Source: Haloquadratum walsbyi J07HQW1 (lineage in GTDB: Archaea; Halobacteriota; Halobacteria; Halobacteriales; Haloferacaceae). Taken from it: a stretch of DNA of 40,000 bases. The notes below the pieces were generated by a model, which ran no database searches, was not told the origin of the DNA, and saw only the letters and a program-made list of their open reading frames with translations. The stretch lies in contig KE356560.1 of assembly GCA_000415965.1 (NCBI GenBank), forward strand, positions 698,895-738,894, in the 5' to 3' direction. Below are positions 1 through 20,431 of this stretch, in pieces. How positions within the stretch are numbered: position 1 is the stretch's first letter; the number at the start of each line of letters is the position of its first letter. Both the position numbers and the translations under genes were made by a program.

Positions 1-393
1 CTGTGATCGAATTACTTCGAACTCGCTATAACTGGTGTACGCATCATTTTCTTCAAGTTCGCGGAATGCAGCAAGGTAAGCACCAGCCGATTGTGGATTA
101 TCGCTGGATACAGTTACATTTTCATCTGTCTGTGTTATTGGTGTTTGATCAAACGTGTTTTGCGTGACTTCATCTGATTGTTCATCTCCAGACAGCGCTG
201 TTTCTCCTACTGTCTCTACCGGTATCCTCGTTTGGGTCATCGCTGTTCTCGGTTCGGCAGTAGGTGCCGTCTTTACAATATCTGATTGTGTTGTATTGGT
301 GCTCGCTGCCGTTCCAACTCCTGGAACAATCCCGGTAAAGGCAAACGCAATGATAACCAGAATGATCGCATAGTTTCTCCAGCATAGTGTCAT
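1..393 (-). CDS. Partial CDS (N-terminal part; continues past window start): signal-anchored or secreted protein, last visible gene of the tubulin-like cluster
   Basis: Absent from the ORF track because it runs off the window. Manual reverse translation from ATG (revcomp of cat 391-393) gives MTLCWRNYAIILVIIAFAFTGIVPGVGTAASTNTTQSDIVKTAPTAEP...DAYTSYSEFEVIRSQ, 131 codons open to position 1. It has an N-terminal hydrophobic helix followed by a T/Q/D/E-rich region. Same strand, 123 nt downstream of the 1096-aa membrane protein. Confidence 0.5.
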   Translation of the reverse strand, partial: MTLCWRNYAIILVIIAFAFTGIVPGVGTAASTNTTQSDIVKTAPTAEPRTAMTQTRIPVETVGETALSGDEQSDEVTQNTFDQTPITQTDENVTVSSDNPQSAGAYLAAFRELEENDAYTSYSEFEVIRSQ

Positions 394-516
394 GCCCACA
401 CCTCGACGCGTTCATCGAACTCCGATGTCGTCCGCAGTCTCTCCGGTGCACACATACATTGATTCGAATTATAGCGTTGTACGTAATCGAAGTTAATATT
501 CGTTTTTCTGCTCATG

Positions 517-3807: not shown

Positions 3808-3811
3808 AAAC

Positions 3812-5044: not shown

Positions 5045-5527
5045 ATATGTCGGTATACGTCCAGTGTGTAGTTGCGTTTGTATGTGTGCTCAGTATCAAC
5101 TGTGATTGTGTATTGGTCCTGATCTTGATCTTAGTATTAATTTGATTACGTGTCTGATTCTGTCTGTGTTTTTACTGCAAATGGATATCATAAAATGTGG
5201 TTCAATATCTCACGTGGCATTCGATTATGTGAATATATCAATACCTGGTATGGCTTTTTGAAGTAATCTGATGGGACCGTCGTCTGGATTGACACCGTGT
5301 CGACTGATTCCCTCATAACTGCCATTTATGTGTCCGATGATGAATTGATCTTGAATGGGATTCGCTATCATGTCTATTGATAACTGGTATCATATATGGT
5401 TAGTTCAAGTCAGTATTCACTCATTGGTACATATAGTTACATGTGAAGGTGCATATGTAAATGTAGTTGTAATAGTTGGAATCATAGACGTGTCTTGATA
5501 CAATTTTCAACGATATTCATCACATAC

Positions 5528-7624
5528 TCATGATTCGTTTTTTTGTAGTTCCCCGTCACTGATTATACCATTCTCAATATCTGTGTTGACAACTGACTGT
5601 ATCTCATTATTTGGGACTGGGGCTGAGAGAAATCGCTCTCTTAATTCATCAAGCGAAATCGTCTCACTCTCGTCAAGATTATATCTAAGCACGTTTGTTA
5701 ACTCCTGTTGTAGACGGTCACTATCATACACGATGATTGTGCCATCAGAGTTTTCGGTTGCAGTGTTGTCAGTGCGCTCAGCCCACAACACGAGCAAACA
5801 CGGAACGTATGATTCATCAATCTGATATGACATCTCCGAGCTCAGGTATGTCGCTTCATCAAACCGCGTAGAAAATCGCGATGCAAGATCATCAAGATAC
5901 GCTGAGGCTTCCTCAGCTATCCCATCACAAACCCGATCTCGGAGGGTTATTGATGGAATTGATAGCGATACGTCAGTATCACCACTCACGGAAATTTCCG
6001 TCTCAGCTGACCCAAAGCCATCAACAGCAGCCACTGCTGTGACTGTATATTCGCCGAATGGGACGTCGTTGAATGTCGCTGTTCCAACGAGTGGTGTCTC
6101 AACGGTCGTTTCGTCGTCATAGTCCGCACCGTTCAAGACAATGCGAATTTGACGGTCAGGACCACCATGTTCGAATCGGGCAGCCACCGTCACGGTGTAT
6201 GTTTCAGTCCCGCCGACTCGTTTGAGACTTGGCACATCCATATTTAATGTTACTTGATCAGGATGTGACCGATAATACAAGCCTAAAAACTGAGTTTCAT
6301 GATTCCGGACAGGCAGTGCGTCGCCTGTGATCTGTCCATCACTCTGGAGCGCCGATTCAATCACCGGCTCGACCTGGTCATATCCACTGATGACAGCGAC
6401 TTTCGGCTTGACCTCATCAATCGCAGCCGTCAGTGCATCGACCGCAGTAGCCCATCGCTGTTCAAACATTCGAAGATTATCACTCTCCTGTACTTGCTTA
6501 AGATAATCCGTCTCAATCGCTCCAGGTTGTGTGTAGAACCCGTTTGGGATATCCGCAGTGGCAAGCTCTTCATCCATTGAATTGAGCTTTGTCATCAATG
6601 CGTCAATTATCTCAGTGCACTGTGCTCGTGTTTTCTTTCGATGCATCGCAAGTGTTGAAAGATCGACAGCATCATCCAGTTCAGCGACTGCTTGTTTCCG
6701 TTGAGTGACATCCGGTGTTGAGTCAGGGAGATACTGCTCAATATCGTATTCATCAACTGTCTGTAAAAGCGACTGGAGTTGCTCTCGATTCGTTCTGAAC
6801 GTGTTTTCACCTTCGGTTTTAATCGCATCACGTGCACGAAGGAGTGCAGTCACCGCATTAGTCATCTGGTGATTGCTGGCTGCTTCCCGTGCTGTCTCAA
6901 CCTCTTTTTCGATCGTTGTTATTTCGACATCATCAGTCGTTCGTGCAATAGACTGGATTGTCTCTGCAGCTGTATCGATTGTCTCTATTGCTTGTCCTCG
7001 GGCAGCTTCGAGTGATTCGCCCGCTGCAGTGGTCTCTGCACCTGCGTTGGTTGTTGTGACATTAATCGCACGCACAGCCTCCCCACCATCCTCGACGAGT
7101 GTATCTAGTCGATCAAGTGAATCAGCGATTGTCTCGAGACGGTCTTCAACAGTCTTGGCGAACGCCGCTGGTAGTTCATCCGCGGTATCATCAACTCGTC
7201 CTGACAATGAGTTAATTGTCTCAAGATCTGAAACATCTCCAAGTGAAAATGCACCAGTCTCAGTGTCGACATTGATTCCCGCTGTTTGAAGATCACGCTG
7301 CAGTGAGTCAATTCCAAGTCCGAGCCCATTATCAATGACAGTTGGATATGTCTGCTTCAACTGCTGGCGCGTCTGCCAGATATCATTGAACGTCTCACCA
7401 ACTTCTCGCGCACGCCGTCGAGTATATTTTGTTTGGTCTGTTCCTTTTGAATCGACCCGTTGTTGAATCCAGACGCCACCGCTGATGAGCAACAATGGTA
7501 CCATCCCAACTGCTGCATACACTGCCCATTGTGACCCAACAGCAACGAAAACGCCTGCACTCACCGCCCCAGCGAACACAACGAGTCCAATAAGTCCAGC
7601 CGCTGTCCGAGTTGCTGATTTCAT
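5528..7624 (-). CDS. Membrane-anchored acidic alpha-helical protein with C-terminal beta-sandwich domain (about 698 aa)
   Basis: ORF track 5528..7720. The preferred start is ATG 7622-7624 (MKSATRTAAGLIG...), which forms an ATGA overlap with the upstream stop (7621-7623). Two N-terminal TM helices (AAGLIGLVVFAGAVSAGVFVAVG, WAVYAAVGMVPLLLISGGVWI) are followed by a basic stretch KYTRRRAREV (positive-inside). A ~430-aa T/A/E/D-rich helical region follows, then TYTVTVAARF...ATFNDVPFGEYTVTAVAAVDGFG (CarboxypepD_reg-like motif) and a C-terminal domain. Confidence 0.7.
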   Translation of the reverse strand: MKSATRTAAGLIGLVVFAGAVSAGVFVAVGSQWAVYAAVGMVPLLLISGGVWIQQRVDSKGTDQTKYTRRRAREVGETFNDIWQTRQQLKQTYPTVIDNGLGLGIDSLQRDLQTAGINVDTETGAFSLGDVSDLETINSLSGRVDDTADELPAAFAKTVEDRLETIADSLDRLDTLVEDGGEAVRAINVTTTNAGAETTAAGESLEAARGQAIETIDTAAETIQSIARTTDDVEITTIEKEVETAREAASNHQMTNAVTALLRARDAIKTEGENTFRTNREQLQSLLQTVDEYDIEQYLPDSTPDVTQRKQAVAELDDAVDLSTLAMHRKKTRAQCTEIIDALMTKLNSMDEELATADIPNGFYTQPGAIETDYLKQVQESDNLRMFEQRWATAVDALTAAIDEVKPKVAVISGYDQVEPVIESALQSDGQITGDALPVRNHETQFLGLYYRSHPDQVTLNMDVPSLKRVGGTETYTVTVAARFEHGGPDRQIRIVLNGADYDDETTVETPLVGTATFNDVPFGEYTVTAVAAVDGFGSAETEISVSGDTDVSLSIPSITLRDRVCDGIAEEASAYLDDLASRFSTRFDEATYLSSEMSYQIDESYVPCLLVLWAERTDNTATENSDGTIIVYDSDRLQQELTNVLRYNLDESETISLDELRERFLSAPVPNNEIQSVVNTDIENGIISDGELQKNES

Positions 7625-8754
7625 AAAATCACCCCTATTGTTCCACTGAGGACGGCGATAATAATACCGACGAGAACCAACGCGCCGCCGCCGACAAGTT
7701 GAACGAAAATTGAAGACCACTCCAATTGCCGACCAAAGTCGGCAAAGTCTCTGGCTTTTCGTCCGAGTATATGCGTTCGATATCCAGCAATGACAGCTCC
7801 GAGTGCAATCCCTGGAACGGCGCCAATTGCAAGATCAGTTAAAACGCTGATTTGCGCACGCTGCTCAACAGCTGCAAGCTTTGTTGCGTACTGTTTCATA
7901 CTTTTGTTCACCTCCTGTGATCGCTTATGTTGTTCTGTTGTGATATTCTCAAGTGCTGTTAAATGTGCGTTTGACCCATTGCGCGCACGAGTGAATAGTT
8001 GACTGCGAAGTGTCGTCGTAGCTGCGCGGGCAGCCGCCCGTTCACGTCTCAGTGTGTTGAGCGTCTGGTTGGCTTCTCGAAGTCTGCTTACAGTAATAGT
8101 CATGTTAACACGTTGCCCATCGGCTGTGAGTTCCTCAGCAGTCGCATTAAGTGACCCAAGTGACTCTGTTATCGATTCTGTGGCGTTACGGTAGTCTTGC
8201 TCATTTTGCCGGTATGTAGTGTCATTCAGAAATACAAGTGGCTCCTGAGCTAACTCTGATTTGACAGTCCCCTCACGCTGTGTCCGTATTCGCACTGTGT
8301 TTTCAACAGGCGCGCTCACAGTGGTTTCATTAAGTGTCACCACTGCACTATTGGAGGCGACTGTCGCTTGATATGTTCGCCCGTTGGCACTCGGTGAGAT
8401 TCCAACCAGATTTTTTGTATTGATTTCCCACACTGTTTCTCCGCCTGGCTGAGGTCGCTCCGCACCGTTTGCTGTACAGTATCCAATATACAATTCAGTT
8501 CCTGGATACACCAGCGTGTTGGTCTCATACTCTTGATTATTCAGAAAGACAACAACTGTGTTATCATCCTTCTCATTACACGCATTCTCGACGGTATCCT
8601 CAGTAGGTTGAACAGCAGCAACTCCGCCGGTCGCCACCGTGAGCACTCCCCCGATAACAATGGTAGATATCAAACATGCGAGAGCTCCATACCACAGCCA
8701 CTGTCGCAACGGGATCACTGAGTTACTCTCTGGTAACCAGTCTGTGTTCCTCAT
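7621..8754 (-). CDS. Three-TM membrane protein with sequon-rich extracellular beta plus coiled-coil domain (377 aa)
   Basis: N-terminal TM helix LWYGALACLISTIVIGGVLTVATGGVAAV. The ~270-aa exodomain has many N-x-S/T sequons (NET, NDT, NAT, NMT, NQT, NGS, NIT, NKS) and a helical stretch LREANQTLNTLRRERAAARAATTTLRSQLF. Two C-terminal TM helices (ISVLTDLAIGAVPGIALGAVIAGY and IFVQLVGGGALVLVGIIIAVLSGTIGVIL). ATGA overlaps at both ends (8751-8754 and 7621-7624). Confidence 0.7.
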   Translation of the reverse strand: MRNTDWLPESNSVIPLRQWLWYGALACLISTIVIGGVLTVATGGVAAVQPTEDTVENACNEKDDNTVVVFLNNQEYETNTLVYPGTELYIGYCTANGAERPQPGGETVWEINTKNLVGISPSANGRTYQATVASNSAVVTLNETTVSAPVENTVRIRTQREGTVKSELAQEPLVFLNDTTYRQNEQDYRNATESITESLGSLNATAEELTADGQRVNMTITVSRLREANQTLNTLRRERAAARAATTTLRSQLFTRARNGSNAHLTALENITTEQHKRSQEVNKSMKQYATKLAAVEQRAQISVLTDLAIGAVPGIALGAVIAGYRTHILGRKARDFADFGRQLEWSSIFVQLVGGGALVLVGIIIAVLSGTIGVIL

Positions 8755-9023
8755 AGTTGATTATCCCAGTACAGAAACACACCGATACTTCCAAGAATGC
8801 TTCCGATGCCCGCTCCAAAGAATATACCAGCCCCAATGTGCGATAATGACCGTTGGCTCGTCTTCACCGCTGTAATCACTGACTCTGTTCGCGCTTGCAA
8901 GGTTGATACACTCGGTGGTGTTGCACCAGCAACGGGATCTGGTGTAAGAGAAATCATCACCACTATACAAGCAATCATACCGATGCAGGTGATTATTCCA
9001 GCAACAATTGGATTACCTCTCAT
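8751..9023 (-). CDS. Small membrane protein (90 aa, 2-3 TM)
   Basis: MRGNPIVAGIITCIGMIACIVVMISL ... GAGIFFGAGIGSILGSIGVFLYW. The start ATG (9021-9023) shares one base with the TGA (9023-9025) of the upstream tubulin-like gene, and the stop overlaps the next start (ATGA). This coupling is the main argument over the competing 69-aa ORF in another frame. Confidence 0.55.
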   Translation of the reverse strand: MRGNPIVAGIITCIGMIACIVVMISLTPDPVAGATPPSVSTLQARTESVITAVKTSQRSLSHIGAGIFFGAGIGSILGSIGVFLYWDNQL

Positions 9024-10315
9024 CAGGCGATCACCGCATCTGATTCTGTCTCATACTCTTCTGCGAGCGTCTCTAATTCAGCAAGCCGCTCGAGGTCCTC
9101 TCGTCGATAGGTAAACAACGTTGTGAATGAAACCAGACTTCGATTTGTTAATGTCGCGCCGAGATTCACTTCATCACATCGAGCGTGGAGAAACGACCGC
9201 AACGTTGATGTCTGAATCTGGTAATCCGTATCGGCAATGTATGTCGAAGGTGCACGCAACAGTCCAACCGCCTTTCGCGCCTCTCGTGTATCAACGTCTG
9301 CAACAGTCTGTTTTAGTTCCGCGACCTGTGAGAGTGCCGTTGCATCGATTTTATTTTGTCCAATAAAGGGCAATAGATATCCAGCAAGCGACTTCGTCAT
9401 CTCCACTGACCGACCCATTGACGCGTACCCAGTTTCGGTATCCTCCCCCAGACCGAACGAAAGGCTCGTCACAATATCCTGAATATCAATAATTGGCGGA
9501 TCAACATCATATTCGCTCCGATCAATCCGCTCAAGAACTGTCCCCGAAATAAGACTCACAATCGCAGAGGCAACATATTCATTGAGATCCGTGAACTGTC
9601 CTTCTGCGGCTTCGTGGTATGAAAGCCGCTCATTATCAACGAGGATAATCCCATCTGCAACCTGCTCGATCTGATTGAGTCCATAGCGAGCATTCCAGGC
9701 TTGCCGACTCGGTGAAGCACCCTCATCGGATTCATCATCGACTGTCCCAACCGGACCCTGAGTGTTTGGAAGCACACAGACCGCGATTGTTTTGCATGTT
9801 CCGTTGGTATACTCATCAATTGCATCAATGAGATGTGCGGTAATTCCACATCCTGTCCCACCACCAAGTCCACAGAACACAAACGCGAATGGCACGTTCG
9901 TCTCTTCAGTTTCAACCACTGACTCGGTCGCTGTTGTTTCGGCACCTGCTTCAGCATTATCACTAGCGGTGCTCGCGGTCCCCTCATCGATTTCAACCCG
10001 CTCTGTCAATTCATCGTACAGTGTATTATCAAGTGCTGCCCGGTTGTCCGCAAGTACCTCATCAGCCCGAACAGGATTACGCCCAAATCCGCCAGTTACC
10101 TGCTCTTCGAATCCGTCTGTCGTCCCAGGAACCAATCCTGTGCCCTCAGCAATTCCGTACCAGCTATTGCGATCGATATTTGTGAGTTTCCGCAGGTCTC
10201 TGACTGTCGAATTGAAAACAAGATGTGTCGCAATCTCGTCCATATTCTTATGAGCGAATATCTCGTCTACAATAGAACTGCCAGCCTGTCCTGCACCCAC
10301 AAAAAGGTATGGCAT
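9023..10315 (-). CDS. Divergent tubulin/CetZ-like GTPase (paralog 2, 430 aa)
   Basis: T1 loop MPYLFVGAGQAGSSIVDEIF (compare CetZ G-x-GQAGG). T4 signature FVFCGLGGGTGCGITAHLIDAI. T7-like ILVDNERL (compare tubulin/CetZ DNEA/DNDA). The blocks NSTVRDL, VCVLPNTQG and WNARYGLNQIEQVADG are collinear with CetZ. A ~40-aa acidic insertion (EGTASTASDNAEAGAETTATESVVETEE) sits before T4. Confidence 0.8.
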   Translation of the reverse strand: MPYLFVGAGQAGSSIVDEIFAHKNMDEIATHLVFNSTVRDLRKLTNIDRNSWYGIAEGTGLVPGTTDGFEEQVTGGFGRNPVRADEVLADNRAALDNTLYDELTERVEIDEGTASTASDNAEAGAETTATESVVETEETNVPFAFVFCGLGGGTGCGITAHLIDAIDEYTNGTCKTIAVCVLPNTQGPVGTVDDESDEGASPSRQAWNARYGLNQIEQVADGIILVDNERLSYHEAAEGQFTDLNEYVASAIVSLISGTVLERIDRSEYDVDPPIIDIQDIVTSLSFGLGEDTETGYASMGRSVEMTKSLAGYLLPFIGQNKIDATALSQVAELKQTVADVDTREARKAVGLLRAPSTYIADTDYQIQTSTLRSFLHARCDEVNLGATLTNRSLVSFTTLFTYRREDLERLAELETLAEEYETESDAVIA

Positions 10316-10340
10316 TATTGTATCTATGTTTAATCCACTC

Positions 10341-10348
10341 TGATAAAC
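10341..10348 (-). promoter_or_regulatory. Candidate TATA box (GTTTATCA on minus strand) for an internal promoter in front of tubulin-like paralog 2
   Basis: Located -26 to -33 relative to the ATG at 10315, inside the 105-nt spacer. This spacing fits haloarchaeal leaderless transcripts. Sequence-only call. Confidence 0.3.
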
Positions 10349-10420
10349 ATGTCTGCTCGCTCAGGATTATATCTGTGAGCTCAGTGTATAATTGACTGTC
10401 CCACGCTATAACTCTCTCAG

Positions 10421-12118
10421 TCATCCGCGTAACTGCTCAAGTAACACGCTATATGCTTGTCGCTCATATAATTCTCTCACCCAATCAAGTGTCTCATCAG
10501 CGGCTTGTAAATACCCAATAGCTCGGTCGGTATTCCCTGCTGCTCGTGCATCGCTGGCTGCCTCTTGGAGTGAACTCACGAGTTCAAGAAAGTGAATCGG
10601 AATACTATGATCGTGTGCTGGATACTCAGAAGGATACTCTGTGCGAAGGGTTGACCGTCGCGACTCAATCTCCTCAGCGAGTGTCTGAACACTGAGTCCA
10701 CTGGATTCTCCGGTCGGTGACTGTAGTTCTGGGCATAATGTTCGATCATAAAATCGTAACTCCTGCCGCGCTGCATACACACTTACACGATCTGCGGGTC
10801 CTGCTTGTGAGACAGTTGATTCAAGCTCAGCAGCACGATCAGCTAAGACTTTCCCAACTGCTGCATCGGTTTTTTGAAACTCAGTCACGAGTGACCCCGC
10901 TAATTCAGCGACAGAATCAGTCTCAACCCCCTCGAGCCGATCTGCGGTAACAGCGGCTTCATCAATTGCTGTCACAGCTGATTGTAACGCCTCAGCGTAC
11001 CTCGAAGTAGCAACATCATCTGCTCGGAGCACATCAATCAAACTCTGACTTCGACTACTTTGTGGAGAAACTGCCGCCCGCTCAATGACAGTCTCAATAT
11101 CGGTCACTGCTGTGGTAAATGCAATTTCTTCATTTATCAGTGCAGTAGTGATTTCATCAAGCGCCAAATCGGGTTTCATATTTGGATCAGCACTGATTGA
11201 CTTACCAGCCTGTTCGCGGACAGTATCGCATATTTCCTCGACGCTTGCACCGATTGATTCGTGTGTACTGCGACACTCATCTCTGTCGGTGATGACATCT
11301 GCAAGTCGCTCACCAATAGTGGTGACTGCTGATCCAGTCTCTCCACCGATTTCTGCTCCTTTTTGCTGCAGTGTTTGCGATAGTTGCTCCGCTTCGACAT
11401 GGGGTTGCACCGTTGATAATGCACGGTGTGTCTCAGCGTCGCGCTCGATGCGTTCGATTGCTGTGGTGAGTGTCTCAGTAAGTCGCCGTTCAGCGGTATT
11501 ATTTGGTGCCTCAAGATACCGAAGAAGTCGATTTGCGGTGTCTGTCTGTGGGTCCGTCCGTGCTGACGCTGTTTCAACTGCATTCGTCAATAACGCTGAG
11601 ATTGTCTCATTCGTTGTTTTTGTCGTTTCAGTGGTCCCCGCGTGGTTGTCTTGACCTCTTGATGTGCTCTCATCACTCATCACAACGCTTAGATTATTGT
11701 AATCTCCTGCTGCATTCTGTTCTCCAGACGATGCGTCATCAACCGAAGCGACTGGTGGAATGAGCTTATTTTGATCTGCAGCGCGAAGGATTGCAGTCGC
11801 CTGTGTCGATGGATCTGCATTTCGGTCAACGATTTCTCGTTCAATGAGTTTGGCTTCAGTGACAATCTGATTGATAGCATCGATGAAGACAGCGGGGTCG
11901 TGATTTGTGTGATTAATTCCCTCTGTTGTTTCTGCTGTTGAATCAACCTGCTTACGAGTCCCAGCGACAAATCCCACGACTCCACCAACGAATAATGAAA
12001 GTACAACTGAACCGGCAAATAATGGTATATTCTCAATACCGAGATTGCCGAGTACATTGACAACAACTACCACACTCTCACCGACAATCATTCCTCCACT
12101 AGCGAGTATGTTTATCAT
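10421..12118 (-). CDS. Membrane-anchored acidic alpha-helical protein (565 aa)
   Basis: N-terminal TM hairpin (ILASGGMIVGESVVVVVNVLGNLG, IPLFAGSVVLSLFVGGVVGFVAG) followed by TRKQ. The remaining ~500 aa are T/A/E/D-rich, look helical, and show no enzymatic motif. The start lies 6 nt after the stop of the zinc-finger tubulin-like gene. Confidence 0.7.
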   Translation of the reverse strand: MINILASGGMIVGESVVVVVNVLGNLGIENIPLFAGSVVLSLFVGGVVGFVAGTRKQVDSTAETTEGINHTNHDPAVFIDAINQIVTEAKLIEREIVDRNADPSTQATAILRAADQNKLIPPVASVDDASSGEQNAAGDYNNLSVVMSDESTSRGQDNHAGTTETTKTTNETISALLTNAVETASARTDPQTDTANRLLRYLEAPNNTAERRLTETLTTAIERIERDAETHRALSTVQPHVEAEQLSQTLQQKGAEIGGETGSAVTTIGERLADVITDRDECRSTHESIGASVEEICDTVREQAGKSISADPNMKPDLALDEITTALINEEIAFTTAVTDIETVIERAAVSPQSSRSQSLIDVLRADDVATSRYAEALQSAVTAIDEAAVTADRLEGVETDSVAELAGSLVTEFQKTDAAVGKVLADRAAELESTVSQAGPADRVSVYAARQELRFYDRTLCPELQSPTGESSGLSVQTLAEEIESRRSTLRTEYPSEYPAHDHSIPIHFLELVSSLQEAASDARAAGNTDRAIGYLQAADETLDWVRELYERQAYSVLLEQLRG

Positions 12119-12124
12119 TATACA

Positions 12125-13972
12125 TCACCCCATATTTTCTCGACCAAGACAATCAAATAGTGGCTCAATTGTTTCCCATGCCTCGCGTAACTCCTGTGCC
12201 TCCTTATTTTCGCTTTGCTCGACAAGTTCTCGTGCGTGCTTGTACATCCGCTCCAGTGTCGGGAGATTCGGATTCCATATGAGCCCCCATAGATAGACAT
12301 TGTCTACATGAGGTACAACGAGTTGATTGACATAGATGTCAATCGAACTCGGTCCATCATATTGCTCGCGTGCGAGAAAATCTTGACCGCTTAGAATCGA
12401 TGTTAATTCACCATCTTGTAGCAGTGGCTCAAGCTCTTCCATCTTTTCTGCCGGACCATATGCCATGAACGTGCCACCCCATGCACTCTTTGGGTCAAAA
12501 TCAACAAGTTGTCCCTGTAGAAGCGTCGACCGTGCGAGTGTATCTAAACGCGCTCTATCAAATCGACTGGCACTTGTCGTTCCGATAACCGGCGCCATCA
12601 CTACAGCAGGAGTGTACGCTCGGTCACTCGCGATGCCATATTTTCGTTGGACTGGGCGAAAACTATCCGGGACATCAAATACCTCACCACTAATTCGTTC
12701 TGTCCCCGTGGTGTCCGCTGACTGTGGCGTCGATGACATCGTAAATGCCTCAAGAAACGTTACCAGTAGGCGGTTGACATCGGTATACATTGGCGGGTTA
12801 TAATGTTCAAGCGCCGCCTGATCGATATCGACGGCAAAATCGGTTCGCTGTGCATCGAGCTTGCTATTATCGAACGGAATAATACCGTCAACGTGCTTTG
12901 AGAGGTATGCCATTCCAACAACCCCACGGACCATCTCTGATGCACCAAACTCAGTCTCTGATGGGAGGACCACGGAACTCAAAATTGGCTTTGAAAGTGT
13001 CGTTGCATCCGCAACACCCGTTCCTTCACTCACGAGATTGCGGATGTTCTTCGCGAGGACTGGCGTTGATCCACATCCAGTACCCTTTGTGACGCTGTGG
13101 ATCAACATCACAGCCTGTGACGCCTCTAGGTCACGCTGATTGACATCAAGTCGGTCTCTAATTGCATTTTTCTCTCCCTCGAAGTCTTTCTGCATGAGGG
13201 TTCGACCAACCTTCCAATTACGCCCTGCTCCGCTGTAATTATGATGACGGTAACCGATCATCCCATTCGTAATGAGTGATTCTTTTGAAAATTCTCGATC
13301 TTGCTGTGCATAAAACGTATCCCCCAACTCCGCAATATTGGTGTTTAATCCCGCGTAATCTGCGAGTCCACCATCCCACACCTGTGCAAGTGGACTGTTC
13401 TGTTCACGAAGTGTCTCTCGACGGAGTAAAATCGCATCAAGAATATGATTCCCAGCCCCCCCAATCCCAATCATCTGCCATTTGTTTCCTGTTGCACCAC
13501 TCAGCGGCGTCGATCCAGGAATATTCACATTGGTATCAATACCCCCGTCGCCGGTGTTTAGATGTGTATTATCACTCTGCGAGTGCCTCTGTCCGGAGAG
13601 TTGGTCTTCGTCGACGTCGGGTGTCGACTCCGGTGATGTTTGAGCACTCGATGTCGATTGTGCTGGATTTTGACCTGCTTGGGTGTTCAGATTACTATGA
13701 CTGCCCGTATTGCCATTCGACTGCGATTCACCTTTATTTCGATTTTTCTCATCTGACGTCGTAATATGCAGTGACGACCCACTGTTATCGTCATCTGAGT
13801 TATCATTGTGATACTGTGGTCGCAGTTCGCCATCACTGTCAAAGATTGTGCTATATCGGTCTGCGTACACCTCCTGGACGGATGCCGGCGTTCCTGCATG
13901 GTTGGCTGCGATGTGTTCTTCGATACTTTGCTCATCAATTTCGCGCAGGCAGATTTTGCAATTGTTTGTCAT
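12125..13972 (-). CDS. Zinc-finger-fused tubulin/FtsZ-superfamily protein (paralog 1, 615 aa) with a degenerate T4 signature
   Basis: The N-terminus CKICLREIDEQSIEEHIAANH has the pattern C-x2-C-x11-H-x4-H (C2H2-like). A ~130-aa S/N/Q/D/G-rich low-complexity linker follows. T1 loop WQMIGIGGAGNHILDAILL. T4 LIHSVTKGTGCGSTPVLAKNI (compare CetZ GLGGGTGSGGAPVLAK). VVLPSETEFG. T7-like IIPFDNSKLD. The start lies 6 nt after the upstream stop. Confidence 0.7.
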   Translation of the reverse strand: MTNNCKICLREIDEQSIEEHIAANHAGTPASVQEVYADRYSTIFDSDGELRPQYHNDNSDDDNSGSSLHITTSDEKNRNKGESQSNGNTGSHSNLNTQAGQNPAQSTSSAQTSPESTPDVDEDQLSGQRHSQSDNTHLNTGDGGIDTNVNIPGSTPLSGATGNKWQMIGIGGAGNHILDAILLRRETLREQNSPLAQVWDGGLADYAGLNTNIAELGDTFYAQQDREFSKESLITNGMIGYRHHNYSGAGRNWKVGRTLMQKDFEGEKNAIRDRLDVNQRDLEASQAVMLIHSVTKGTGCGSTPVLAKNIRNLVSEGTGVADATTLSKPILSSVVLPSETEFGASEMVRGVVGMAYLSKHVDGIIPFDNSKLDAQRTDFAVDIDQAALEHYNPPMYTDVNRLLVTFLEAFTMSSTPQSADTTGTERISGEVFDVPDSFRPVQRKYGIASDRAYTPAVVMAPVIGTTSASRFDRARLDTLARSTLLQGQLVDFDPKSAWGGTFMAYGPAEKMEELEPLLQDGELTSILSGQDFLAREQYDGPSSIDIYVNQLVVPHVDNVYLWGLIWNPNLPTLERMYKHARELVEQSENKEAQELREAWETIEPLFDCLGRENMG

Positions 13973-13978
13973 TGTCTG

Positions 13979-15907
13979 TTATGCGTATGCTGATTGTAAT
14001 TGCTTCATCACTCGTCGTGGACTCACTCCATCTGCAACTTCAATAGAAAGGAATCCTGGTGGTGGATTCGATGGAATCGTTACTTGTACTACATCACCTT
14101 GTCGCTCAGCGAATGATTTAATCTCAGTAAGAACGGCTGGTTTGATAAATTTCGCTGGAAGTCGCTCAGTTTGGAGTTCGACAGTGTTTTTACCACGCTG
14201 AGATGCAGCGCTCGCTTGCAGTTCACCAAGTACATACAGAACATCATCCTGTGGTACCTCCGTATCGCGAGGGGTCCCTCCAGTTAATGCTGCATGCTCG
14301 CCTGTACCGTCTGCTGTCCTGCTGCGTTCTGCCCCAGTAACACCACTGGTGGCATTACCTGCACCCGATTCCATCTCTGAATCGCTCCTTTCTGTTAGAT
14401 TCAATACATCATCTACGACCTGATACTCGATTTGATAACTCCGCTCGAATGGCACCCGTAGCTTCTCGATAAGATCAGTATCGATTGATGATGGTACAGG
14501 AATTGAACCGGACCCATACTCAATCGTCGCTGTGACGCTTTGTCCAAAGAATTCAGCAATCTGAACAATCTCTTTTGCTTCTGTCTCTGCTGTGTCAGCC
14601 GACTGTGTTGCTGCGTCGAATCGACACTCATGCAACGCCTCCAGTGCCTCCTTACGGTGGTCATCAACGATTGGCTTTGTTGGAAGCGATTCATTAGCTG
14701 ATAACTCTGGTGTCCGCCCTTCGAGTAGATACGCCTCAAGTCGCTCTTGAGCCGGTCCCTCTAATTTATTAAGATTTGTTGCAGTGGTTTCAATTGCGTT
14801 TTCTGCCGTATCTAAGGATTCAGCAATCGGTTCTTCATGAGTTTGAAGTGTTTCTTCAACTGCTTCAAGATGCGTATCAATTGCATCAACTGCCCCAGCG
14901 ACAGCAGCAAGTCCATCTGGATTCGTTTCGATTGTCTCAATAAGTCGGGTAGCTATTTCATGCTGTGCTCCGCCAATTTGAATAGCCGGTCCATCGATTG
15001 TCGGTGGTGAGACCGAATTATGGGTCCGCAAATTTCGGATCTTATACTCACGATTGAATCGCGACACATAGTGTACGTCACTATATTGTTCTTTAATCTC
15101 GTCTCTCAGTCGTCGCTTCAACGTAGATATTAACCGAACAGCAGTCTCTTCTGCAACTTCATTGAGTTTCGCCGCATCAGCCTGTAGTTGCGCAGCTGTA
15201 TCATGGCGCTCACGGCTTGATATCGATCCATCAACAACCGCATCCGCTTTATCCTGAACTGTTTGACAACGCTCTCGAAACTCGCTGCACTCTGATTCGA
15301 ATGCTGCGACTGCCTCTGGTGCGACTGCTCTCAGCGACGACCGTACCTGTTCGTCCACAACTCGCTCGACTTGATCATCGAATGTGGTGAGCGCCTGCTG
15401 TGTACTTTCACGAGCGGTAGATAACGCTTCTGCAGCCTCTGAATCAAGTGTCACATTCCAATCAAAGACAAGCGATGCCGCCCAACTCATTGCTGCGGTC
15501 CCGATTGGAACAAATAAGAATCCAGCAGTTTGAACCGCTGGAATTCCTGCAGAAGCAATTGGAAGATACACAAGCTCGAATAACACAAGAAACAGTGTCA
15601 CAAATCCTGTGGCACCAAGGGTCATAACGCGGTGTTGAAGAGCAAATAATCCAATCCCCTGGGCAATCCACGCAAGCGCGATGAGAACAAATAATATAAA
15701 CACGATAGTTGAACTTGACCGGAAAATATTACCTGCAGTCCGAAAGACAGATACCGACCAGAGAAATTGCGTGAGTGATCCAATCAGCGGAATCGTGGTA
15801 GCTGTCGTCTCAAACAGCGCGACCGTTGCCTGCACGAAGGATGCAAGAATTGGCAACCCAGCGACAGCCCAACACCCTGCCGCAACTCGCCGCCTATTCT
15901 GCAACAT
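13979..15907 (-). CDS. Polytopic (4-6 TM) membrane protein with a long acidic alpha-helical C-terminal region (642 aa); first gene of the cluster
   Basis: The N-terminal ~150 aa are hydrophobic (VAAGCWAVAGLPILASFVQATVALF, IPLIGSLTQFLWSVSVF, STIVFILFVLIALAWIAQGIGLFAL, VMTLGATGFVTLFLVLFELVYLPIA, IPAVQTAGFLFVPIGTAAMSWAASLVF). About 490 aa of E/A/T/D-rich helical sequence follow. No catalytic motifs recognised. Confidence 0.7.
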   Translation of the reverse strand: MLQNRRRVAAGCWAVAGLPILASFVQATVALFETTATTIPLIGSLTQFLWSVSVFRTAGNIFRSSSTIVFILFVLIALAWIAQGIGLFALQHRVMTLGATGFVTLFLVLFELVYLPIASAGIPAVQTAGFLFVPIGTAAMSWAASLVFDWNVTLDSEAAEALSTARESTQQALTTFDDQVERVVDEQVRSSLRAVAPEAVAAFESECSEFRERCQTVQDKADAVVDGSISSRERHDTAAQLQADAAKLNEVAEETAVRLISTLKRRLRDEIKEQYSDVHYVSRFNREYKIRNLRTHNSVSPPTIDGPAIQIGGAQHEIATRLIETIETNPDGLAAVAGAVDAIDTHLEAVEETLQTHEEPIAESLDTAENAIETTATNLNKLEGPAQERLEAYLLEGRTPELSANESLPTKPIVDDHRKEALEALHECRFDAATQSADTAETEAKEIVQIAEFFGQSVTATIEYGSGSIPVPSSIDTDLIEKLRVPFERSYQIEYQVVDDVLNLTERSDSEMESGAGNATSGVTGAERSRTADGTGEHAALTGGTPRDTEVPQDDVLYVLGELQASAASQRGKNTVELQTERLPAKFIKPAVLTEIKSFAERQGDVVQVTIPSNPPPGFLSIEVADGVSPRRVMKQLQSAYA

Positions 15908-15932
15908 CTATATATAAATACGTTGACCGGGG

Positions 15933-16052: not shown

Positions 16053-18851
16053 TCACTCTTCAGCATTTGTGTTTGTTAGTTTTTCCTGCCACTGCTCGAC
16101 GGTTTGCAGTAGTGTCACCGGCGCTGTCGATTCGATGTCAAGTGATTGAAGATCATTAATTACTTCTTTTGTGTCTGCATCGACCGTTGTCTGCTCGGAC
16201 CCTTTGTTATCATTGATAGGGGCTGTCTGACTCTCTGTGTCCGCGTCCGCGTCCGTGTCTGTGTCTGTGTCTGTCCCAGCAACGCGAATATCACCGGTAT
16301 TGACGTCAAACACAACCTGTTGGGTTGTCTCTTCGCTGTTAGCACCTCCAGTCGTCCTCTTTTGTTGATCGCGGTTTGATGTATCAGCGCGATTTTGTGT
16401 TTCAACCTCGATTGCCTCATCAGCACGAAGTGTTGATAATACGTCCCTTGCTCGTGTCACAACCGGGTCCGGGACACCAGCGAGTTCTGCCACGTGAATT
16501 CCATACGAACGATCTGCTGGTCCTGGTTCAACAGTTCGAAGAAATGTCACATCGCCATGACGCTCCTCTGCGGCGACATGGACATTTGAAACACCTGTAA
16601 TTCGGTCTGCTAATGTTGTGAGTTCATGATAATGTGTTGCAAAAAGAACTCGCGGTGATGGTGCTGTTGGGCGCGCTGCTGAGAGATACTCCGTTGCAGC
16701 CCATGCAATCGAAATTCCATCATATGTTGCTGTCCCTCGACCAACCTCATCAAGAATGACCAGTGATTCCGAGGATGCCGAGTGAAGAATCTTCGAAAGT
16801 TCCTGCATCTCAACCATGAATGTCGAGCGACCCTGTGCGAGTTCATCTAATGCGCCAACGCGTGTATAAATTCCATCAACAGATCCGATGGTGGCGGCTG
16901 CTGCTGGAATGAAACTTCCAGCATGTGCAAGCAGGGTAATAAGTGCTACCTGTCGGAGATATGTGGATTTCCCACTCATGTTTGGTCCTGTGACGAGTAA
17001 GAAGTTCCGTTCATCTCCTAACCGGAGATCATTTGGCACAAACTCTGTTGTCTGCTCAACAACCGGATGTCGACCAGCCTCAATATCAACCGTGTGATCG
17101 CTACACAGCGTCGGACGTGTCCAGTCATTTTCGACGGCATGCGTCGCAAGTGAATAAAGTGCGTCTATTTCTGCAATAACTTGTCCGACTGTCTGTAACA
17201 TCGTGGCGTAGTCAGCGATCTGCTCACGGAGTTCACAAAATAGCTCATACTCTATTTCACCACGGGATTCTTCTAATCGGAGAATTTCTCGTTCGCGCTC
17301 GACGAGTTCATCGGTTTTGAATCGTTTTGAATTTTTGAGAGTTTTAATCTCCCGATAGTGTTCTGGGACCTGATCGGCGACAGATTTCCCAACTTGGATA
17401 TAATGACCATCGGTTTTGTTTCGATCGACACTGAGATGATTTAGATCATGTGTCTCTGTTTCTCGCTTGGCGAGTGTATCCATCCATTCTTGAGCGGTTT
17501 CATGACGCTCTCGAAGAGAGTCAAGCTCATCATCATACCCATATTGAAACAATCCACCGTCTCGAATTGTTTTTGGAGGGTCATCAACGAGTGCTGCTAT
17601 GAGTTCATCTCGAACAGCTCTCACAGTATCTTCGGTCGGTCGAGTGACCACTTGTGTCAAAGGCGAGTCGGACAATGTTGACTCTGTGATGACTTCATTG
17701 AGCGTCGGAAGCACATCAAGGGTCTCTCGGATTCGCAGTAGATCAGTGGCGTCAGCGCGTTCAGAAATACATCGCGCAGCTAGTCGCTCAAGATCATAGC
17801 TTCCATTGAGTGCTTCATTGATTCGCTCACGAGCCAATGGTGCGTCGACAAGCGCTTCGACACAATTGAGTCGACGAGTTATTTCTGTTTGCTCGCGCTG
17901 TGGTCGCATTATCCACTCTCGGAGCTGTCGTTGTCCTGCGCTCGTCGCGGTATGATCGATCGTTCCAAGGAGTGTCCCATCGCCACCGCGGTCACCATGC
18001 ATTGTCTCGGTCAATTCAAGATTACGCCGTGTCGTCGTGTCCAATGCAAGGTGAGTCTCTGAATCAAGCGGTTGGAGTCTCGTGATTGCAGCACGAACAC
18101 CTGTGTCTGTTTCGTCGATATATGCGAGTATCGCACCAGCAGCCTGGATTGCAACGTCAGTCTCAATATTGACACTGTCAATCGCAGTTGTACCAAACTG
18201 CTCGCTGAGAATATGACGCGCACGTCCAAGAGCGAAGGCTGCTGTTTCAAATGATGCTACCGTCGCATCAGTATCCTCACGAAGTCGCCGAATGAACTCA
18301 TCAGCATTCCGGACGGTTGGACCAGGAAGGATTTCAACCGGATCAAACCGGGTGAGTTCTGCATATGCAGTCTCAACATCCTCAACATCGCCAATAAAGA
18401 ATGACCCAGTCGTTACCTCCGCAAATGCAATTCCAATAGATGTTTCAGTCGTCTCAGTCGTTTCAGTTGTTGTGAGATCCCCAACGACGGCTGCGATATA
18501 CCGTGCATCAGCATCGTCCGTCGCGAGTAATGTACCTGGTGTGACAACTCGGCTGATACGACGGTAATGATCTCCATCGTCGGATTCATGTTGATCTGCG
18601 ACAGCAACCCGATATCCGCGTTCAACGAGCGATTTTAGATATGGTGTGAGATCATCAACCGGGACCCCAGCCATTGGATATGAAGACCCATGTGCGGATT
18701 TTTGTGAAATTGTGAGATCAAGCTCTGTGGACACTAACTCAGCGTCTTCAGCAAAGAATTCATAAAAATCACCACATTGCATCGTCAGTAAATCCGCGTC
18801 TGTCTCAGCGCGGAGTGAGAGGAACTCCTCAACGATTCCCTGCGAGGCCAT
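16053..18851 (-). CDS. mutS: DNA mismatch repair protein MutS (932 aa)
   Basis: The N-terminal mismatch-binding region has FLSLRAETDADLLTMQCGDFYEFF. Walker A LLVTGPNMSGKSTYLRQVALI. STFMVEMQE and ILDEVGRGTATYDG motifs. The C-terminal extension is acidic and low-complexity (TDTDTDTDADADTE). Confidence 0.95.
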   Translation of the reverse strand: MASQGIVEEFLSLRAETDADLLTMQCGDFYEFFAEDAELVSTELDLTISQKSAHGSSYPMAGVPVDDLTPYLKSLVERGYRVAVADQHESDDGDHYRRISRVVTPGTLLATDDADARYIAAVVGDLTTTETTETTETSIGIAFAEVTTGSFFIGDVEDVETAYAELTRFDPVEILPGPTVRNADEFIRRLREDTDATVASFETAAFALGRARHILSEQFGTTAIDSVNIETDVAIQAAGAILAYIDETDTGVRAAITRLQPLDSETHLALDTTTRRNLELTETMHGDRGGDGTLLGTIDHTATSAGQRQLREWIMRPQREQTEITRRLNCVEALVDAPLARERINEALNGSYDLERLAARCISERADATDLLRIRETLDVLPTLNEVITESTLSDSPLTQVVTRPTEDTVRAVRDELIAALVDDPPKTIRDGGLFQYGYDDELDSLRERHETAQEWMDTLAKRETETHDLNHLSVDRNKTDGHYIQVGKSVADQVPEHYREIKTLKNSKRFKTDELVEREREILRLEESRGEIEYELFCELREQIADYATMLQTVGQVIAEIDALYSLATHAVENDWTRPTLCSDHTVDIEAGRHPVVEQTTEFVPNDLRLGDERNFLLVTGPNMSGKSTYLRQVALITLLAHAGSFIPAAAATIGSVDGIYTRVGALDELAQGRSTFMVEMQELSKILHSASSESLVILDEVGRGTATYDGISIAWAATEYLSAARPTAPSPRVLFATHYHELTTLADRITGVSNVHVAAEERHGDVTFLRTVEPGPADRSYGIHVAELAGVPDPVVTRARDVLSTLRADEAIEVETQNRADTSNRDQQKRTTGGANSEETTQQVVFDVNTGDIRVAGTDTDTDTDADADTESQTAPINDNKGSEQTTVDADTKEVINDLQSLDIESTAPVTLLQTVEQWQEKLTNTNAEE
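16239..16274. repeat. Six-unit hexanucleotide microsatellite (GTCYGY) inside mutS, encoding the (TD/AD)n tract
   Basis: gtccgc gtccgc gtccgt gtctgt gtctgt gtctgt read directly. The reverse complement ACAGAC encodes Thr-Asp. Confidence 0.85.
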
Positions 18852-19249: not shown

Positions 19250-20431
19250 ATGAAACATACACTTCGCTTCCGCGCATACTTACCCGATGACGTGGCTAGC
19301 GAAGCGTGGCATCAGATTGATATTCTCCGACAGATTCGCAATCACGCTGTCCGAGACTACTACAACTCGGACTACAACAACAGACCATCTGACTCCGACC
19401 AACTCAGTAAACTCAAACACTGGGGAGACAACTGGGATATCTTCGCAGAACCCTCACAACACGCTGCACAACAAGCCATTCGCCAGATTCACAGCGATCT
19501 TGTGACCCTCCAAGAACGGCGAAATAACGGCTATAACGTCGGGCGATTGCAGTGGCAAGGTCGTGGTGAGTTTCGGTCTGTGTCGGACAATCAGTCCAGT
19601 CGCTTCAACGTGGATCACAACACGGGCGACGACCGATATGTACGATTCCGGCTCGAAAAGATTGGCTGGTTCAAAGTCCGTGCAAACTGCGACGTCCCAC
19701 CAGCAGACGAGATTAACCAGGTGATCCTGAAAACAGAGACGACTGGTGAATGGTACGTCTCACTCGTGACCACAGTAGAAGACACTCCTAAGAAACCACC
19801 ACTTAGCGAGATGAAACCACAAAACTGTGTGGGTATTGACCTTGGTATCACCAGCTACATCCACACCTCTGAAAACATGTCCGTGGATACATTTGAGTTG
19901 TCGGATGAGTACGACCGCTGTGCACGCGAACAGCGGAAACTCGACCGGAAAGAACACGGTTCCGATAACTGGGAGAAACAACGCCGGAAGGTGGCACAAG
20001 CAAAACGCAAAATCAAGCGGAAGGTGTGTGACTACCAGCACAAACTCACGACGTGGCTGGTGCAAGAGTACGACGTTGTGGCTGTCGAAGACCTAGACGT
20101 AGACGTGAAACCAATGTTGGAAACGAGCCAGAACGCGAAAAACAAGCAAGATGCTGCGTGGTCACGATTTATCGAGTTGCTGGAGTACAAGGCTGACCTA
20201 CATGGCACCCATGTTGAGAAGGTGGAACCGAAAGGCACGACCAAAGAGTGCGCTGTGTGTGGTGTTGAGACGGAGAAACCGATCTGGGTACGCGAACACT
20301 CCTGTCCAGCGTGTGGTCATACTGAAGACCGTGAGTTGAACGCAGCAAAGAATATTCTCAATCGTGGTTTGAAGCAGTTAGGGGCGGGACGCTCCGAATC
20401 ACCGTCGTCCGAGAGACGAAGTCTCTCGTGA
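19250..20431 (+). CDS. tnpB: TnpB (IS1341-type transposase-associated RNA-guided endonuclease family), apparently intact, 393 aa
   Basis: RuvC-I CVGIDLGITSY, RuvC-II VVAVEDLDV, zinc finger CAVCGVETEKPIWVREHSCPACG, RuvC-III EDRELNAAKNILNRG. Confidence 0.9.
   Translation: MKHTLRFRAYLPDDVASEAWHQIDILRQIRNHAVRDYYNSDYNNRPSDSDQLSKLKHWGDNWDIFAEPSQHAAQQAIRQIHSDLVTLQERRNNGYNVGRLQWQGRGEFRSVSDNQSSRFNVDHNTGDDRYVRFRLEKIGWFKVRANCDVPPADEINQVILKTETTGEWYVSLVTTVEDTPKKPPLSEMKPQNCVGIDLGITSYIHTSENMSVDTFELSDEYDRCAREQRKLDRKEHGSDNWEKQRRKVAQAKRKIKRKVCDYQHKLTTWLVQEYDVVAVEDLDVDVKPMLETSQNAKNKQDAAWSRFIELLEYKADLHGTHVEKVEPKGTTKECAVCGVETEKPIWVREHSCPACGHTEDRELNAAKNILNRGLKQLGAGRSESPSSERRSLS

Follow-up and report, generated by a model that had tools for sequence, protein, structure and literature searches.

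A conserved N-terminal C2H2-type finger on a disordered leash in the haloarchaeal Halo.Tub proteins, and the membrane-protein gene cluster that surrounds them

One group of haloarchaeal tubulin-superfamily proteins, named Halo.Tub, has so far been described from phylogeny only, its placement between CetZ and the tubulins being unstable, its trees and its unrelated genomic context setting it outside CetZ, and its genes occurring in quasi-tandem copies with coiled-coil neighbours (Santana-Molina, Saz-Navarro & Devos 2023, Front Microbiol, PMC9871819). Such proteins are grouped in a survey of CetZ under “non-canonical TSF proteins.” The protein discussed here, encoded in a stretch of 40,000 nucleotides of Haloquadratum walsbyi J07HQW1 (GCA_000415965.1, contig KE356560.1, positions 698,895 to 738,894; hereafter the window), belongs to the same family, since one of its homologs (P0037), 48% identical to it, is WP_006088651.1 of Natronorubrum tibetense, a top match (1e-106) of the Halo.Tub C-terminal hidden Markov model in PMC9871819, where it is listed along with matches from Natrinema versiforme, Halobaculum gomorrense and Halogeometricum rufum.

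Our main finding is that a C2H2-type finger is indeed fused to the tubulin-superfamily core of this protein, as proposed by an earlier reading of the DNA made without database searches (the sequence-only reading), and that the fusion is conserved across the homologs. We tentatively read Halo.Tub as a GTP-binding, self-assembling filament protein, the finger of which would act, on a disordered leash, as a protein-binding hook to co-encoded membrane proteins, a proposal in which our confidence falls slightly below even. The family is already known by name; its finger(s)-leash-core architecture, a fixed variant of the T4 loop, a conserved gene triad and the composition of an 11-gene cluster appear to be unreported. 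The word “zinc” is absent from the main text of PMC9871819, and neither finger, leash, T4 variant, triad nor 11-gene cluster is described there. In the searchable literature we found no experimental work on Halo.Tub, nor any on the Halobacterium “ftsZ5” or on the Haloquadratum cytoskeleton, and no description of the finger, in agreement with the earlier statement that no characterised zinc-finger/tubulin fusion was known.

Multiple described systems can be compared with this locus. One is represented by CetZ1 and CetZ2 of Haloferax volcanii (Protein Data Bank, PDB, entries 4b46 and 4b45), the best structural matches to Halo.Tub, with template modelling (TM) scores of 0.81 and 0.76. Like Halo.Tub, these are haloarchaeal proteins of the tubulin superfamily, and they are cytoskeletal GTPases, but identity is only 15–17%, and CetZ proteins possess neither the N-terminal finger nor the leash, have a canonical T4 loop and are found in another genomic context (PMC9871819). 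The Halo.Tub family profile is about equidistant from FtsZ (expectation value, E, 1.6e-7), CetZ (2.3e-7) and BtubA (2e-6), the GTPase domain alone aligning in these comparisons, and an assignment to CetZ, with a match of 2e-7 that is no better than the others, was therefore rejected.

Another is FtsZ, which likewise combines a globular assembling GTPase with a variable disordered spacer and a short docking element, the arrangement proposed here for Halo.Tub; in FtsZ these are a C-terminal linker and a conserved C-terminal peptide, by which it is attached to membrane anchors. The D-x-x-D of the Halo.Tub T7 loop is also FtsZ-like. In Halo.Tub, however, both leash and docking element are N-terminal, and the docking element is a zinc finger predicted to be folded. 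An identity as a cell-division FtsZ was rejected, as the NCBIfam ftsZ model (TIGR00065) gives only 26 bits against an equivalog cut-off of 295.2, and for the same reason calling these proteins “cell division protein FtsZ,” as RefSeq commonly does, is an unjustified over-annotation.

A third example is CdpC of Haloferax volcanii, in which two zinc fingers are joined by a long disordered linker; it links FtsZ1 to the membrane, and its fingers are essential (bioRxiv 10.64898/2026.07.16.738847). CdpC differs in being a separate protein that acts in trans and in having C3H and C4 zinc ribbons rather than a C2H2 finger, so that the likeness is functional and implies no sequence relationship; by analogy, it may be taken as a close functional precedent for a Halo.Tub tether. 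The TubZ/TubR/tubC and PhuZ systems, in their turn, are tubulin-superfamily filaments with a nucleic-acid-binding adaptor, and, similarly, some of the Halo.Tub clusters reside on megaplasmids. The structural match of TubZ is weaker (TM 0.61, rank 29 in the Foldseek search), and a TubZ-type (type III) segregation system was rejected, there being no TubR gene, iterons or phage copies, and the neighbours being membrane proteins. Finally, FtsZl-1/Tubulin_2 is a divergent tubulin-superfamily GTPase encoded in a membrane-protein cluster, with a predicted role in membrane remodelling (Makarova & Koonin 2010, PMC2875224). Its partners, vWA, OmpA and an extra GTPase, are absent from the Halo.Tub cluster, and this identity was also rejected, on a Pfam PF13809 score of 19.4 bits against a cut-off of 27 and on the lack of vWA/OmpA-type neighbours in the window.

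The finger module and its leash

The gene and its parts, all on the minus strand, are as follows (window coordinates; pLDDT, predicted local distance difference test).

12125-13972, minus strand: Halo.Tub finger gene (zinc finger, linker, tubulin-superfamily core), from the list of open reading frames (ORFs), a Pfam Tubulin match of 49.4 bits and 110 homologs
13835-13972, minus strand: N-terminal finger module, residues 1-46, modelled by AlphaFold as a beta-hairpin, helix 17-24 and helices 29-35 and 37-43/44, with the invariant Y36
13898-13960, minus strand: putative zinc ligands C5, C8, H20 and H25 (CKICLREIDEQSIEEHIAANH), from the 91-sequence alignment and genomic DNA
13484-13834, minus strand: disordered linker rich in S/N/G/D/T/Q, residues 47-163, from composition and AlphaFold pLDDT
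12128-13483, minus strand: tubulin/FtsZ-fold core, residues 164-615, with GTPase domain, H7, activation domain, two C-terminal helices and the tail LGRENM
13448-13468, minus strand: T1 loop GIGGAGN, residues 169-175, G-[VI]-G-G-A-G-N in 91/91 sequences
13070-13096, minus strand: T4 loop SVTKGTGCG, residues 293-301, the family variant of GGGTGSG
12662-12679, minus strand: T7-type loop FDVPDS with D433 and D436, both Asp in 91/91 sequences, aligned with VVDVRD of paralog 3

The ORF begins with an ATG and encodes 615 amino acids plus a stop, and this ATG is the most upstream start possible, the stop codon of the preceding gene, g1 (13979-13981), lying 6 nt earlier. Residues 5-25 carry the pattern C-x2-C-x11-H-x4-H exactly as it had been reported, and of the four Cys in the protein (5, 8, 300 and 608) two are inside the finger. 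The search of 5.8 billion proteins that returned the 110 homologs found Halobacteria only, among the homologs bearing an organism name, and 91 of them, full-length and 32–88% identical to the window protein, were aligned. C5, C8, H20 and Y36 are invariant in this alignment and H25 is conserved in at least 90% of sequences, in a module of which the mean column identity is just 40%. The pattern C-x2-C...H-x3-5-H is present in each homolog with a complete N-terminus, and homologs without it are either fragments or begin at a Met or a Val right after CKIC (P0044-46, P0054, P0056, P0063, P0064, P0067, P0072, P0073, P0077, P0082 and P0085), thus losing both Cys and still carrying the two His.

The latter entries are the one argument for the finger being an artefact, produced by a wrongly placed start or by Cys and His residues that happen to fall into this pattern in a non-coding leader, as they (for example P0044-46, P0063, P0064, P0077, P0082 and P0085) begin downstream of it. 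Against this, the genomes of the short entries encode the finger in frame. DNA was inspected at 35 loci in species-representative genomes, and the finger is encoded in frame at 34/34 of those with an intact 5' end, including in genomes where the start is annotated downstream. One example is Halorubellus sp. PRR65 (L022, locus 10001-11596), with an annotated protein that begins MTARDGW and with the DNA MTGTCKICVTARDGWERDTLEAHIAHEH. The short entries are systematic start-codon mis-calls, masking the finger from architecture searches, and with the Cys/His ligands kept and the starts placed upstream of them, an artefact is extremely improbable.

As to the structure, the isolated 46-residue module was modelled by AlphaFold, from 59 sequences, as a beta-hairpin, a helix with both His and two further helices (pLDDT 86, predicted TM score, pTM, 0.62), and its pLDDT is 86–97 in the full-length model, made from 91 sequences. 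Among the PDB matches found by Foldseek for the module, the best are nearly all classical C2H2 fingers (root-mean-square deviation about 2 Å over 26–28 columns), although none is significant, all having E > 3 for so small a domain. The spacing was judged to agree with the classical C-x2-4-C-x12-H-x3-5-H, the spacer of x11 in the window protein being one short of x12, and a hydrophobic residue, I17, stands three residues ahead of H20, as in classical C2H2 fingers. Across the orthologs the central spacer varies from x9 to x14 and the last one is H-x3-5-H, and the textbook C-x2-C-x3-F-x5-L-x2-H-x3-H is found in the distant relatives P0162, P0163 and P0177. No Pfam zinc-finger model scored above its cut-off across the 59 modules, sub-threshold matches being to zf-Di19 (18), zf-met2 (12), zf-BED (7), zf-C2H2_12 (5) and zf-C2H2_4 (3), and a search of the 5.8 billion proteins with the profile of the finger module alone returned nothing at E 0.01, a query too short for a database of this size and hence an uninformative result. 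From the conserved ligand pattern, the module would be expected to bind zinc.

The module is followed by a linker of the composition that the sequence-only reading had described, with S, N, Q, D and G making up 58% and hydrophobic residues 10%; its length of about 130 residues, as given there, was not borne out, the disordered part being about 105–117 residues, that is, 117 for residues 47-163, of which residues 59-161 have pLDDT < 50 in the full-length model. Across the family this leash is acidic, G/D/S/T/E-rich and 25–150 residues long, with a median of 45.

Beyond the finger, relatives of Halo.Tub form a small clade, as just 48 proteins reached E 1e-30 or better when 1.84 billion cluster representatives were searched exhaustively with a profile. 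Here the N-terminal leash carries 0, 1, 2 or 3 copies of the finger, with three in P0152 and two in P0144, P0147 and P0159, the fingers of the multi-finger relatives being 30–50 residues apart. The more distant clade members have a leash without a finger, or no N-terminal extension.

The opposite end of the protein is also conserved. The C-terminal F-x-x-L-G-R-E-N-M (window 12125-12160, residues 605-615) is nearly invariant in Halo.Tub, G610 and R611 being invariant, which makes it a possible structural cap or a further possible docking motif.

The tubulin core and its nucleotide pocket

The core of Halo.Tub is recognized by the Pfam Tubulin model (PF00091) over residues 167-372, with 49.4 bits against a cut-off of 33 and E 8.6e-13. 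The full-length AlphaFold model has a mean pLDDT of 83.9 and a pTM of 0.75, the pLDDT exceeding 90 over most of residues 165-615, and its closest match in the PDB is CetZ1 (4b46; E 3e-15, TM 0.81), followed by CetZ2, Methanocaldococcus jannaschii FtsZ, OdinTubulin and eukaryotic tubulins. These alignments with CetZ, FtsZ and tubulin span both domains (410–510 columns, probability 1.00, 13–18% identity), and the predicted structure thus folds as tubulin/FtsZ, as had been supposed. Halo.Tub is a member of the tubulin/FtsZ superfamily outside all characterised families.

The T1 loop GIGGAGN, the TPVLAKN block and a T4 loop in which TKGTGCG stands in place of GGGTGSG were all found as the sequence-only reading had listed them. 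The T4 loop departs from the canonical [SAG]-G-G-T-G-[SA]-G, the G-T-G-x-G core alone being kept. A different conclusion was reached on its meaning, as the nucleotide-binding signature, which had been called degenerate, is in fact nearly invariant: of the 91 sequences, S293 is found in 91, V294 in 90, T295 in 86, K296 in 90, G297, T298 and G299 in 91, C300 in 86 and G301 in 91. The T1 motif G-[VI]-G-G-A-G-N, N210 (in N210-T-N), G248-x-G250, P337 and F367-D-N369 are invariant or nearly so in the same alignment, as are the H7 residues N400 and E408, both invariant. At the position of T7, the motif F-D-[VP]-x-D-S has D433 and D436 in 91/91 sequences. FDVPDS may be assigned to T7 by its motif and position, in alignment with VVDVRD of paralog 3. 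We take it to match the N-x-D-x-x-D motif of FtsZ. In a profile alignment (hhalign) of the family with an approximate sequence of E. coli FtsZ, only the GTPase domain up to T6 aligned, leaving T7 outside.

Since TKGTGCG is fixed and the remaining nucleotide contacts are invariant, the T4 variant points to a constrained, working pocket and not to decay. Judged from the alignment, TKGTGCG is a fixed family character under strong selection, and Halo.Tub probably still binds GTP and hydrolyses it in a polymerisation-dependent manner. In the wider clade the loop reads H-S-x-x-[K/R/G/N/H/Q]-G-T-G-x-G. With its natural T-K-G-T-G-C-G loop, the family amounts to an evolutionary experiment on the motif that is most conserved in the superfamily.

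Two other tubulin genes are encoded downstream in the window.

9023-10315, minus strand: tubulin paralog 2, 430 amino acids, T4 GLGGGTGCG, Pfam Tubulin 43.2 bits
3812-5044, minus strand: tubulin paralog 3, 410 amino acids, T4 LGGGTGNG, T7 VVDVRD, Pfam Tubulin 41.8 bits

The T4 loop SVTKGTGCG of the finger protein aligns with LGGGTGCG in paralog 2 and with LGGGTGNG in paralog 3. BLASTP among the three paralogs gave no significant alignment, and hhalign showed them to be homologous, with 97–98% probability over about 290 columns (97.6% over 301 columns for paralog 2 against the Halo.Tub family). The 90%-identity clusters of paralogs 2 and 3 include RefSeq proteins of Haloquadratum walsbyi, and in strain C23 the ortholog of paralog 3 is annotated “FtsZ family protein, noncanonical.” The finger protein of C23 has 628 amino acids, equal in length to P0002, a homolog with 86% identity to the window protein.

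The gene cluster and the possible role of the finger

From about 393 to 15907 of the window, the genes follow each other closely, all of them on the minus strand. Besides the three tubulin genes these are the following.

13979-15907, minus strand: g1, 642 amino acids, about five membrane helices at the N-terminus, a long helical region and a globular domain at the C-terminus, from hydropathy
10421-12118, minus strand: g3, 565 amino acids, an N-terminal membrane anchor and a long helical domain, from hydropathy and synteny
8751-9023, minus strand: g5, 90 amino acids, two membrane helices, its ends overlapping both adjoining genes, from hydropathy, with an ORF of 81-99 amino acids at the same place elsewhere
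7621-8754, minus strand: g6, 377 amino acids, a membrane helix at the N-terminus, then a domain predicted to lie outside, a helical stretch and a pair of membrane helices at the C-terminus, from hydropathy, position conserved
5528-7624, minus strand: g7, about 698 amino acids, with membrane helices and a long helical region, and with a prealbumin/Ig-like domain from a weak Pfam SpaA match
517-3807, minus strand: g9, about 1096 amino acids, a membrane helix at the N-terminus, then a large region predicted to lie outside and 4-6 membrane helices, with a CarboxypepD_reg-type beta-sandwich and a helical C-terminal part, from Pfam and hydropathy
1-393, minus strand: 5' part of g10, a signal-peptide protein running off the window, from comparison with H. 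walsbyi C23 and Halobacterium salinarum pHS2

g7 probably starts with the ATG at 7624, overlapping the stop of g6, the ortholog consensus beginning MK..., and g9 probably starts with the one at 3807. In H. walsbyi C23 and on plasmid pHS2 of Halobacterium salinarum R1 the cluster comprises 11 genes, including g10, with a signal peptide and a C-terminal anchor, and g11, of about 900 amino acids, with a signal-peptide-like N-terminus and one weak Ig-like Pfam match only. The gene order is conserved in about 30 loci of Halobacteria, with g1 immediately upstream of the finger gene, in the genera Haloarcula, Halovenus, Natrinema, Halorussus, Halopenitus, Halorubrum, Haloarchaeobius, Halorubellus, Halobiforma, Halolamina, Haloparvum, Halobaculum, Natronomonas and Halanaeroarchaeum, and a census by exact peptide patterns places the cluster in at least 32 species.

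A smaller unit is maintained further out. Among eight distant relatives, both finger-bearing and finger-less, homologs of g1 flank the tubulin gene in 8/8, directly upstream on the same strand in seven and divergently in one (L047), and homologs of g3 are found downstream in 6/8, the contig being too short or no match being found in the other two. As paralogs 2 and 3 and g7 are absent from these relatives, the triad of g1, Halo.Tub and g3 appears as the conserved core.

Scans of all cluster proteins with Pfam, NCBIfam, PADLOC and PHROGs returned, beyond Tubulin, only weak Ig-like/prealbumin matches and coiled-coil noise, with no defence-system or phage family among the matches, and profiles of g1 and g7 against PDB sequences found coiled coils only. 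When the three membrane/helical proteins that precede the tubulin genes were compared as candidate paralogs of one another, the only match among them was one stretch of 35 columns between g1 and g7 (90% probability).

It is usually through short C-terminal peptides or separate adaptors that proteins of the tubulin superfamily are attached to membranes or cargo. In the reading that we favour, the core of Halo.Tub would assemble on GTP, as its fold and the invariant T1–T7 residues suggest, and the finger with its two-helix extension would form a small folded docking unit on an acidic disordered leash of 25–150 residues. This unit would hook the polymer onto the cytoplasmic helical parts of g1 and/or g3, the most likely partners, and the strength of docking would be tuned by valency, that is, by the variable number of fingers. 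The presence of 0–3 fingers in series on one leash in the relatives suggests an avidity-type docking element. In the version found in Halobacteria, cytoplasmic filaments would further be coupled to the envelope via the predicted extracellular Ig-like parts of g6, perhaps g7, g9, g10 and g11. A conserved, leashed N-terminal finger in one to three copies would represent a different solution to coupling, and, if this is true, Halo.Tub would be the first tubulin-superfamily protein with a folded N-terminal docking domain of its own.

The charge of the finger module bears on the nature of the partner. The net charge has a mean of −6.5, ranging from −13 to 0, and is never positive, which is why a protein partner is favoured over nucleic acid. 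From these sequence properties a tether to a protein is plausible and a role in DNA binding is less likely, and the tethering to nucleic acid that the sequence-only reading had entertained is weakened accordingly. Nonetheless, C2H2 fingers typically bind DNA, and the best, non-significant, structural matches of the module are DNA-bound fingers. This, along with the two or three fingers in series in some relatives, an Mrr-type nuclease gene after the triad in one finger-less variant, and the location of some clusters on megaplasmids, would agree with a DNA-moving filament of the TubZ/PhuZ type, with its adaptor fused in cis and serving in replicon segregation or nucleoid anchoring. The plasmid copies are those of five PLSDB records, in which the cluster is on a large secondary replicon (H. 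salinarum R1 pHS2, Natrinema sp. SYSU A 869 and three Halobaculum species), and of plasmid p1 of Natrinema sp. 74. However, most of the copies are on large chromosomal scaffolds, none was found in 50,697 phage records or in IMG/VR, and the distance of 30–50 residues between fingers is unlike the tight arrays that read DNA. No TubR-like adaptor is encoded, the conserved neighbours being all membrane or envelope proteins, and scans of the intergenic regions near the cluster revealed no iterons or centromere-like repeats, with searches for RNA families at the cluster likewise finding none. Along with the acidic module, these observations make a nucleic-acid-bound filament unlikely.

Some observations weigh against the membrane-docking reading. 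The C-terminal domain of g1 is found near three of four finger-bearing and two of four finger-less relatives, thus showing no correlation with the finger, and since finger-less relatives keep their g1 and g3 neighbours, the finger is not required for the triad. As to the GTPase, the first two T4 glycines are replaced, and the activity of Halo.Tub may be low or altered. In E. coli FtsZ, the GTPase is lowered by a change at the equivalent of the first of these (ftsZ84, G105S). Also, the finger module has a higher pLDDT when modelled within the full-length protein (94–97, over residues 11-50) than when modelled alone (84–90), which could mean, in terms of the models, that the finger docks on its own core rather than on a partner.

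This last difference is the starting point for an intramolecular role, in which the finger, bound to the core, would gate assembly or nucleotide turnover, by autoinhibition or as a zinc/redox sensor. Cys-based zinc sites are able to sense the redox state, and a further conserved Cys, C300, is present in the T4 loop (86/91). However, the difference in pLDDT may reflect only the depth of the alignments (91 vs. 59 sequences), and a leash of up to 150 residues with two or three tandem fingers would poorly suit a single docking site, and so we give a control in cis a low probability.

The replaced glycines allow for one more possibility, of Halo.Tub being a poor or dead GTPase and acting, like gamma-tubulin, as a structural, capping or nucleating subunit for filaments of the canonical paralogs, with the finger fixing the site of nucleation. 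It is in accord with this that Halo.Tub alone among the three paralogs departs from GGGTG, that in Halobacteria the three tubulin genes are always together, and that the T7 pair, which is kept, could activate the GTP of the adjoining subunit. But base and phosphate contacts in T1, T3, T5, T6 and H7 are invariant, unexpectedly so if nucleotide binding was lost, the variation of the Lys position (K/R/G/N/H/Q) before an invariant GTG-x-G in the wider clade looks like that of a tolerated loop variant, and distant relatives that carry the triad without paralogs 2 and 3 must function without them. A nucleator thus appears quite improbable.

Returning to the docking reading, an 11-gene cluster with three tubulins and Ig-like proteins suggests an envelope-spanning, filament-driven machine. 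In this larger picture, possible but less likely than not, the finger-bearing tubulin would be the founding part of a haloarchaeal cytoskeletal machine, with three ancient paralogs each preceded by a membrane-anchored helical protein of its own, with Ig-like surface proteins, and with the leashed finger as a new filament-to-membrane coupler. Such a machine is directly testable, since the cluster is present both in Haloquadratum and in the genetically tractable H. salinarum R1 (on pHS2), and the cluster occurs in Halobacterium salinarum, Haloarcula, Halorubrum and Natrinema, where deletion and imaging are routine. As published trees place Halo.Tub between CetZ and the eukaryotic tubulins, its biochemistry also bears on how archaeal tubulin filaments diversified.

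Further observations on the cluster and the window

The cluster shows some variable features. A non-coding spacer of about 480 bp (window 5045-5527) separates g7 from paralog 3; the same spacer is about 700 bp in H. walsbyi C23 (L038, 9306-10001) and 2–6 nt in other genera. It shows neither strong repeats nor a match in Rfam. An internal promoter found only in Haloquadratum may be located there. At the other end, an A/T-rich palindrome, ATCTATATATAAAT, lies at window 15906-15919, directly at the annotated start of g1, and it may be the TATA element of the cluster promoter, in which case the true start of g1 could be slightly downstream.

The copy on pHS2, a 195-kb plasmid of a standard laboratory strain, is complete with all 11 genes (L037, NC_010369.1 172619-189846; genes OE_RS12075 to OE_RS12025), and the annotation there reads “hypothetical protein” for paralog 3 and for most of the others. 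For genetic work it is the most accessible copy. In the finger-less metagenome relative (L043, 5766-6743; L044, 5837-6814), the Mrr-type restriction-endonuclease gene and another, unknown gene directly follow the triad. Next to one two-finger relative (L047, 1-550), a Tubulin_2 (FtsZl-1-like) protein of 1145 amino acids is encoded, placing two non-canonical tubulin systems side by side.

Upstream of the cluster in the window lies a mutS gene (16053-18851), and MutS was rejected as a functional partner, as it adjoins the cluster in no other genome examined. About 400 bp beyond mutS, a TnpB/IS605 OrfB-type gene is found on the plus strand (19250-20431), with OrfB_IS605 and Cas12f1-like TNB domains. 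The guanine-plus-cytosine (GC) content of the window is about 48%, and it rises from ~0.48 to 0.54–0.57 between 32000 and 38000, over phosphate ABC transporter genes (a PstB-like ATPase, a permease and a PBP-like binding protein), well above the Haloquadratum-like background. An ORF of 564 amino acids on the minus strand (27422-29116) combines NAD kinase domains and an inositol-monophosphatase-family domain in one protein.

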